Counted from the stretch's first letter, positions 615 through 2,272 are shown. The stretch: 2,519 nt of DNA from Escherichia coli (GCF_003334355.1 NZ_QOWP01000073.1), one strand, 5' to 3'. Program-made: numbers and translations. The notes: a model not told the origin generated them from the sequence alone.

Positions 615-1409
615 ATGAAACCGACCACCATCTCCTTACTGCAGAAGTACAAACAGGAAAAAAAACGTTTCGCGACCATCACCGCTTATGACTATAGCTT
701 CGCCAAACTCTTTGCTGATGAAGGGCTTAACGTCATGCTGGTGGGCGATTCGCTGGGCATGACGGTTCAGGGGCACGACTCCACCCTGCCAGTTACCGTT
801 GCCGATATCGCCTACCACACTGCCGCCGTACGTCGCGGCGCACCAAACTGCCTGCTGCTGGCTGACCTGCCGTTTATGGCGTATGCCACGCCGGAACAAG
901 CCTTCGAAAACGCCGCAACGGTTATGCGTGCCGGTGCTAACATGGTCAAAATTGAAGGCGGTGAGTGGCTGGTAGAAACCGTACAAATGCTGACCGAACG
1001 TGCCGTTCCTGTATGTGGTCACTTAGGTTTAACACCACAGTCAGTGAATATTTTCGGTGGCTACAAAGTTCAGGGGCGCGGCGATGAAGCGGGCGATCAA
1101 CTGCTCAGCGATGCATTAGCCTTAGAAGCTGCTGGGGCACAGCTGCTGGTGCTGGAATGCGTGCCGGTTGAACTGGCAAAACGTATTACCGAAGCACTGG
1201 CGATCCCGGTTATTGGCATTGGCGCAGGCAACGTCACTGACGGGCAGATCCTCGTGATGCACGACGCCTTTGGTATTACCGGCGGTCACATTCCTAAATT
1301 CGCTAAAAATTTCCTCGCCGAAACGGGCGACATCCGCGCGGCTGTGCGGCAGTATATGGCTGAAGTGGAGTCCGGCGTTTATCCGGGCGAAGAACACAGT
1401 TTCCATTAA
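615..1409 (+). CDS. panB: 3-methyl-2-oxobutanoate hydroxymethyltransferase (ketopantoate hydroxymethyltransferase), 264 aa
   Basis: ATG at 615 with AGGA (605-608) 6 nt upstream; 264-aa ORF ending TAA 1407-1409. The translation ([55 protein letters not shown]...) matches enterobacterial PanB as I recall it, and the length is right. Confidence 0.96.
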
Positions 1410-1420
1410 GGAGTCACGTT

Positions 1421-2272
1421 GTGTTAATTATCGAAACCCTGCCGCTGCTGCGTCAGCAAATTCGCCGCCTGCGTATGGAAGGCAAGCGCGTGGCGCTGGT
1501 GCCTACCATGGGTAACCTGCACGATGGCCATATGAAGCTGGTCGACGAAGCCAAAGCCCGCGCCGATGTGGTCGTCGTCAGTATTTTCGTTAACCCGATG
1601 CAGTTCGACCGCCCGGAAGATCTGGCTCGTTATCCACGGACCTTGCAGGAGGACTGCGAGAAGCTAAACAAACGTAAAGTGGATTTAGTTTTCGCCCCTT
1701 CGGTAAAAGAGATCTACCCGAACGGTACTGAAACCCACACTTACGTTGACGTTCCTGGCCTTTCGACCATGCTGGAAGGTGCCAGCCGTCCGGGACATTT
1801 TCGCGGCGTTTCGACTATTGTCAGCAAGCTGTTCAACCTGGTCCAGCCGGACATCGCCTGCTTCGGTGAAAAAGATTTTCAGCAACTGGCGCTGATCCGC
1901 AAAATGGTTGCCGATATGGGCTTCGATATTGAGATTGTCGGTGTGCCAATTATGCGCGCCAAAGACGGTCTGGCGCTAAGTTCCCGTAACGGTTATCTGA
2001 CGGCGGAACAACGCAAAATTGCGCCTGGTCTGTACAAAGTTTTAAGTTCGATTGCTGACAAATTGCAGGCTGGGGAACGGGATCTCGATGAAATTATTAC
2101 CATTGCGGGGCAAGAACTGAATGAAAAAGGCTTCCGCGCCGATGATATTCAGATTCGCGATGCCGACACATTGCTGGAAGTTTCTGAAACCAGCAAACGG
2201 GCAGTAATTCTGGTAGCCGCCTGGCTTGGCGATGCTCGCCTGATCGACAACAAAATGGTCGAGCTGGCGTAA
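1421..2272 (+). CDS. panC: Pantothenate synthetase (pantoate--beta-alanine ligase), 283 aa
   Basis: GTG start at 1421 with AAGGAG (1408-1413) overlapping the panB stop; 283-aa ORF ending TAA 2270-2272. The translation contains the HIGH-type nucleotidyltransferase motif ([14 protein letters not shown]) and matches enterobacterial PanC. Lies immediately downstream of panB as in the panBC operon. Confidence 0.96.

Follow-up and report, generated by a model that had tools for sequence, protein, structure and literature searches.

We found that the junction between panB and panC of Escherichia coli is part of a bicistronic unit in which panC is most probably translated from its own Shine-Dalgarno (SD) sequence, with initiation at the GTG codon at position 1421. 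We assign a probability of roughly 0.85 to this reading. Translation of panB may contribute to panC initiation, but we infer that any such dependence would be at most partial, and it is not required by the data. In the mechanism that we propose, the strong 7-nt SD TAAGGAG, located 7 nt before the GTG, would direct canonical initiation, and the site would possess all that is needed for independent binding of the 30S subunit. The stop codon of panB lies inside the panC SD by happenstance, leaving a gap of 11 nt. Ribosomes ending panB translation could still assist in two ways, either by melting a weak hairpin in which the last panB codons are base-paired to the GTG and the GGAG or by leaving a 30S subunit beside the SD. 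The net translation of panC is about 0.4 of that of panB per mRNA.

The window, which is the whole stretch of 2,519 nt that was analysed, matches E. coli K-12 MG1655 with 100% identity from position 132 to 2445. It contains the 3' end of yadC and the two vitamin B5 genes panB and panC; the other strand carries the 3' part of rpnC/yadD. The panB gene (615-1409, plus strand, stop included) encodes 3-methyl-2-oxobutanoate hydroxymethyltransferase, also known as ketopantoate hydroxymethyltransferase, with 264 aa. This assignment agrees with RefSeq and with an N-terminal peptide of 18 residues in the supplement of PMC13245402. The panC gene (1421-2272, plus strand, stop included) encodes pantoate--beta-alanine ligase with 283 aa. 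Both products are full-length equivalogs in NCBIfam, where PanB reaches 441.2 bits against TIGR00222 over residues 1-264 of 264 (curated cutoff 207.55 bits) and PanC 439 bits against TIGR00018, residues 1-281 aligning to profile positions 1-283 of 283 (curated cutoff 212.75 bits). PanC carries the nucleotidyltransferase HxGH motif within residues 28-37, a 10-residue stretch read from the translation, and matches the cytidylyltransferase-related domain TIGR00125 over residues 23-68.

Both genes are transcribed together. The supplement of Huber et al. 2023 (PMC10666635) lists them on the polycistronic transcript panBC, and the gap of 11 nt is too short to hold either a promoter or a terminator. 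A consensus scan detected no plus-strand promoter-like site within panB or near the junction and no terminator between the two genes, and a search of Rfam returned no RNA family match at the junction. The same type of scan pointed to a candidate panBC promoter at 551-578 (plus strand; TTGCCC-16-TAAAAT with TG), for which it is weak evidence since the total of promoter-like sites did not exceed that in shuffled sequences. A terminator-like hairpin picked up by consensus scanning just 3' of panC (2277-2307, plus strand), with a 12-bp stem and a T-rich tail, may close the bicistronic unit. A perfect 12-bp inverted repeat at 508-541 (GTAGCAGCACTG...CAGTGCTGCTAC), 3' of the yadC stop codon and 5' of the promoter-like site of panB, is likely the transcription terminator of yadC, and it explains the spurious Rfam microRNA matches at 498-552.

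The original prediction had placed the panB stop codon TAA at 1407-1409, an SD sequence AAGGAG at 1408-1413, an 11-nt gap, the panC GTG at 1421 and the next in-frame ATG at 1475-1477, and all of these coordinates proved to be exact. The overlap between SD and stop codon was borne out and can be refined. Complementarity to the 3' tail of the 16S rRNA reaches one base further, to TAAGGAG (1407-1413, plus strand), so that the entire stop codon lies within the SD. The 7-bp anti-SD duplex has a calculated energy of -8.7 kcal/mol and is separated from the initiation codon (1421-1423) by a spacer of 7 nt (1414-1420); the gap as a whole reads GGAGTCACGTT (1410-1420). Canonical SD-led initiation involves at least 4-6 nt of complementarity located 5-9 nt before an ATG, GTG or TTG, and the panC site offers 7 bp, a 7-nt spacer and a GTG. 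An anti-SD score of -9.98 was given for panC by Burkhardt et al. 2017 (PMC5318159). The combination AAGGAG-N7-GTG occurs once in the window, while 0.02 occurrences were expected from 200 shuffles, whereas AAGGAG alone is found once per strand, which is about chance level. Hence it is the placement that is non-random and not the hexamer itself. Between the upstream in-frame stop TGA at 1361 and GTG 1421 there is no in-frame ATG, GTG or TTG.

A second SD-like sequence, AGGAGG at 1647-1652, lies within panC over Gln-Glu-Asp codons, and its anti-SD duplex, at -10.3 kcal/mol, exceeds that of the panC SD in strength. No ATG, GTG or TTG was found 5-12 nt 3' of it, so that it does not serve as a start; pausing is the most that it could bring about.

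For a comparison across species we searched species-representative genomes for DNA that could encode the PTMGNLH(D/E)GH motif, using a degenerate pattern; as this motif lies downstream, the junction itself was not selected on. The search gave 120 DNA stretches with 118 PanC loci, 115 of which had a candidate start. In 80 of the 115 loci panB is located directly 5' of panC, with gaps ranging from -47 to +269 nt (median about 11.5); 10 of these 80 pairs overlap and eight have a gap of exactly 11 nt. PanB@PanC (COG0413@COG0414) is also among the closely spaced pairs in the COG-pair table of Huber et al. (PMC10666635). The exact module of TAAGGAG, 7 nt and GTG is limited to three genera, Escherichia, Citrobacter and Enterobacter. 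Across them, the spacer sequence varies but its length and the GGAG core are kept, and this pattern of conservation supports a function. Morganellaceae have an ATG start and gaps of 33-53 nt.

Within the species, 5,425 of 5,426 complete E. coli genomes contain the junction segment at an identity of at least 95%. Among the divergent E. coli that were sampled, only two positions vary, 1408 (A>G) and, in the spacer, 1415 (C>G). The former changes the stop codon from TAA to TGA and the SD to TGAGGAG, which is still SD-complementary. The two genes of Superficieibacter electus are separated by a REP-like palindrome, GCCTGATAAGCGAAGCGCCATCAGGC, 60 nt before the panC start, and the gap is enlarged to 121 nt. 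Despite this distance, TAAGGAG, the 7-nt spacer and the GTG are intact, and the layout suggests that the module may work as a stand-alone ribosome-binding site. Two loci of the set carry questionable labels. One, binned as 'uncultured Oscillospiraceae' (L041), has a PanC that is 98.6% identical to that of E. coli and an E. coli-type junction with the TGA variant, and the contig probably belongs to Escherichia and was placed in the wrong bin. The other, from a metagenome-assembled genome labelled Klebsiella pneumoniae (L048), has a PanC of just 46.6% identity and no panB upstream, and is probably mis-binned as well.

Published profiling data show that the two genes are translated unequally. According to Burkhardt et al. 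(PMC5318159), the mRNA abundance is similar (306 for panB and 359 for panC), while ribosome density is 600 for panB and 268 for panC and translation efficiency 1.96 and 0.75, respectively. The efficiency of panC is thus about 2.6-fold lower than that of panB, even though its SD is stronger (anti-SD values of -10.0 for panC and -5.2 for panB). Near-equal synthesis of both proteins, which is expected for tight reinitiation only and does not define coupling as such, is not seen in these efficiencies. With mRNA levels being similar, a ribosome density on panC of about 45% of the panB value excludes a tight 1:1 coupling. Label-free proteomics of two K-12 strains (PMC6544118) gave 1019 and 816 copies of PanC and PanB in one strain and 564 and 1976 in the other. 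The resulting ratios of 1.25 and 0.29 are inconsistent and therefore uninformative on coupling.

Some of these observations count against SD-led initiation as the default. The efficiency of panC is low despite its strong SD, the minimum free energy of its -30 to +15 region is -7.3 kcal/mol compared to a median of -5.1 kcal/mol at annotated starts, the GTG is predicted to be paired, and the in vivo DMS Gini index of the 5' (head) region is 0.457. A structured initiation site together with a low translation efficiency would also fit a real dependence on panB translation. Coupling by RNA unfolding is a model recognised in the review of Brown and Wade 2025 (PMC12548453). Applied to this junction, a hairpin would close the panC start and would be opened mainly by the ribosome on the last codons of panB, making PanC dependent on panB translation; we consider this possible but doubtful.

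A hairpin of this kind is predicted by folding at 1393-1425 (plus strand, -7.3 kcal/mol). In the model, AACACA at 1393-1398, in the panB codons E260-H261-S262, pairs with UGUGUU at 1420-1425, which contains the GTG, and UUCC at 1401-1404 pairs with GGAG at 1410-1413. The hairpin is predicted in contexts of 43, 48, 61 and 120 nt. When windows from -30 to +15 were folded, the GTG had an unpaired probability of 0.00-0.01 in Escherichia, Citrobacter and Enterobacter cloacae (minimum free energies of -7.0 to -8.3 kcal/mol), whereas the start region of panB was open (-0.1 kcal/mol). Local folding of the whole mRNA placed the accessibility of the panC SD and GTG at the 32nd-37th percentile and that of the panB ATG at the 74th-87th. 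The head region of panC is also more structured in vivo by DMS-seq, the Gini index of panB being 0.336 (PMC5318159).

On the other hand, the predicted hairpin is weak and statistically unremarkable. Its z-score in 43 nt is -1.44, with 18 of 200 shuffles folding as well, and in longer contexts it is -1.01 (61 nt) and +1.01 (120 nt). Annotated E. coli starts have a median of -5.1 kcal/mol with an interquartile range of -6.9 to -3.4, and random genomic windows a median of -8.6 (PMC13245402); the value for panC thus lies just outside the range of annotated starts, yet it is less stable than the median random window. Neither compensatory changes nor covariation were found in the homologous hairpin arms, and the conserved coding sequence for E-H-S-F restricts changes in the left arm. 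Moreover, the pairing is absent in Enterobacter sp. Ag1 and Bisph1, in Rahnella and in Acerihabitans, and in Superficieibacter the partner is displaced. A partial unfolding-type coupling at the panB-panC junction is therefore plausible, but we hold it only tentatively. It seems similarly doubtful that the hairpin of Escherichia, Citrobacter and E. cloacae, formed by panB codons 260-264 and the panC SD and GTG, makes PanC dependent on panB translation and in this way fixes the PanC:PanB ratio at a sub-stoichiometric value of about 0.4 in spite of the near-consensus SD. If this were true, the junction would be a natural example of unfolding-type coupling within the abundant class of E. coli junctions with gaps of +9 to +12 nt.

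Tight coupling by termination and reinitiation, in which a 30S subunit or a 70S ribosome ending at the panB stop codon would slide to GTG 1421 and yield near-stoichiometric amounts of PanB and PanC, is improbable. The gap is short and the SD is located right at the termination site. Short gaps between the two genes are common in Proteobacteria, as seen in the comparative set. In synthetic operons of Tian and Salis, as they are cited by the review (PMC12548453), coupling was undiminished from -4 to +25 nt. However, the unequal ribosome densities described above do not fit such a mechanism, nor are PanB and PanC subunits of one complex, the pair being listed with a gap of 11 nt as 'CMPLX not' in the supplement of PMC10666635. 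In E. coli, the efficiency of reinitiation falls steeply with distance, as seen in the reporter work of the same paper. The review describes conflicting results on spacing, as one synthetic system tolerated gaps of up to +25 nt with no effect on coupling and other systems lost it entirely at +13 or +11 nt. According to its title, a further paper (PMC7538156) found ribosome recycling not to be critical for coupling in E. coli. The protein ratios, being inconsistent between strains, lend no support to a fixed stoichiometry. With efficient coupling ranging from -4 to about +3 nt and variable coupling up to about +25 nt, the spacing of +11 nt at the panB-panC junction falls into a range (+11 to +14 nt) where published outcomes extend from unaffected to abolished. 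We found no direct experiment on panB-panC coupling in the literature, including one with a premature upstream stop.

Returning to SD-led initiation at GTG 1421, the start codon itself is established beyond reasonable doubt. Four independent lines lead to this conclusion, namely the alignment to the crystallised enzyme and to homologues, the comparison of the 115 loci, the strength of the SD and an N-terminal peptide. The 283-aa translation is 100% identical to the E. coli enzyme of PDB entry 1IHO. Residues 1-18 align with the homologues of Salmonella and Yersinia and with Thermotoga 2EJC (from residue 1), and TIGR00018 is matched from its position 1, so that, as had been predicted, a start at Met19 would cut off conserved N-terminal residues. 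In 93 of the 115 loci the start is found at the homologous codon (82 ATG, 11 GTG). The first 26 codons contain no ATG, GTG or TTG other than this GTG in Citrobacter werkmanii, Enterobacter cloacae and Enterobacter sp. Ag1. Comparison with the reference annotation gave the same GTG, the RefSeq panC CDS at 2790-3641 of the E. coli locus in our set (L001) being equivalent to window positions 1421-2272 (offset 1369), and four divergent E. coli genomes are annotated in the same way. Finally, the TRAINSPOTTER N-terminomics supplement (PMC13245402), from a method that enriches nascent, formerly N-formylated N-termini, lists for b0133 a peptide of residues 1-11 starting from the GTG at NC_000913:148793-148795. 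It is classed there as the database start, with support flags from Ribo-RET, INRI and REPARATION. No N-terminal evidence for a downstream methionine replacing the GTG was found, and the TetRP start-site supplement (PMC4909307) has no entry for panC or panB.

That PanC truly starts at the Met19 ATG (1475-1477), with the layout of GTG and SD being coincidental, is effectively refuted, for although a 265-aa form exists in some deposited annotations and its tryptic or Arg-C N-terminal peptide would presumably be too short for mass spectrometry, so that proteomics alone cannot exclude a minor species, the ATG is not preceded by an SD (+1.3 kcal/mol), occurs at codon 19 in only three of the 115 loci and is absent in Citrobacter and Enterobacter, and the conserved residues, the peptide and the Ribo-RET flag all support the GTG.

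A second N-terminus of PanC is listed in the supplement of PMC13245402, covering residues 117-128 and corresponding to the ATG at 1769-1771 (codon 117). A start at this codon would yield a product of 167 aa that does not contain the HxGH motif. The site has neither an SD (-1.5 kcal/mol) nor a Ribo-seq flag, and it is predicted to be unusually open (unpaired probability of 0.55-0.78). This N-terminus probably reflects low-level spurious initiation.

The warning that automated callers may mis-place the panC start is supported by the deposited proteins, which we counted by exact-sequence look-up. The full 283-aa PanC was found on at least 1,000 contigs. Shorter forms of 265 aa (from Met19), 260 aa (from GTG 1490) and 254 aa (from Met30) are present on 22, 12 and 36 contigs, respectively, the first including complete genomes (e.g. 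AFG39013.1, EFJ86140.1). In GenBank, truncations to 265, 260, 254 and 246 aa were seen in E. coli and E. albertii, with complete genomes among the records. The value of the present analysis is therefore mainly that of a sanity check for annotation, as a minority of genomes carry N-terminal truncations of PanC by 18-29 residues originating from ATG-preferring callers.

The panBC genes of this window are enclosed by two insertion sequences. Positions 1-131 are the terminus of an IS1 (ending in ...GGAGTCATTACC) inserted in yadC, and identity to MG1655 begins at 132. The listed open reading frame at 118-501 with a TTG start is the 3' remnant of yadC read through the IS1 junction (NF007268 positions 291-412 of 412). 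IS1 insertions in yadC are also found in other E. coli strains, e.g. BE104, at different positions. At the other side, 2446-2519 is the outer end of an IS10 (Tn10-type) inserted in rpnC/yadD, where Rfam gave a partial match to RNA-OUT at 2491-2519 on the minus strand (E = 0.003). In DH10B, the same 74 nt precede a gene for an 'IS4-like ISVsa5 family transposase' at nupG. The 9 bp before the IS10 end, CGCTGGGCG, resemble the Tn10 target consensus NGCTNAGCN. Among the complete E. coli genomes and PLSDB plasmids of the collections searched, no record contains both the IS1 junction in yadC (131/132) and the IS10 junction in rpnC (2445/2446), which points to an unrepresented K-12 derivative with panBC between two IS elements 2.3 kb apart. 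We considered zad-220::Tn10 as the identity of the right-hand IS10, and the literature that we examined gave no confirmation.

Taken as a whole, the panB-panC junction is already known and already annotated E. coli biology, and we agree with the original prediction that it is ordinary, textbook biology. The panC GTG has been annotated, its product crystallised and its N-terminus confirmed by N-terminomics, so that the junction is of little importance beyond correct annotation. It may nevertheless be a convenient and well-characterised test case for coupling in the approximately 200 E. coli pairs with gaps of +9 to +12 nt.

The description of the junction as a classic arrangement for coupled translation holds in part. 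The two genes share the panBC mRNA and the SD lies over the panB stop, but 'classic' is overstated for a gap of +11 nt, which is not an overlap of -4 or -1. Like the classic overlapping pairs (ATGA at -4, TAATG or TGATG at -1), panB and panC are on the same strand and share an mRNA, and the ribosome-binding site of the second gene is located in or at the end of the upstream reading frame. By the size of its footprint, a ribosome terminating on the upstream gene covers the downstream start region. In the classic pairs stop and start overlap, whereas those of panB and panC are 11 nt apart. Furthermore, subunits of heteromeric complexes are over-represented in the overlap class, a category to which PanB and PanC do not belong, and the translation efficiencies of the two genes differ 2.6-fold.

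A TAAGGA(G) that overlaps the stop codon, with a gap of 10-11 nt, has recurred independently in two further loci, one from Vibrio bivalvicida (L019) and one from a Burkholderiales metagenome-assembled genome (L112). Loci beyond the Enterobacteriaceae-like group have an ATG start, unlike the GTG of E. coli. Of the panB-panC loci with gaps of 6-15 nt, a strong SD (-5.9 kcal/mol or stronger) is found in only 13 of 25. As in RNA-unfolding coupling (PMC12548453), folding places the downstream start and a portion of the SD in predicted base pairs with the final stretch of the upstream reading frame, which upstream translation would open; the hairpin differs from that model in being weak, statistically unremarkable, devoid of covariation and limited to one lineage. 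The closest relatives of the junction are found in the survey of Huber et al. (PMC10666635), which covers 2,987 unidirectional E. coli pairs. There, 707 pairs at -8 to +6 nt are linked to termination-reinitiation, and a separate small peak of about 203 pairs is seen at +9 to +12 nt, with leuD (gap 10), yadL (11) and cdsA (12) as further members in the same table. With its gap of 11 nt, its co-transcription and just enough space to fit an SD next to or across the upstream stop codon, panB-panC belongs to this class and shows no material difference from it. For these pairs the authors favour independent initiation of translation, which they regard as likely, the alternative being that coupling depends on further interactions.
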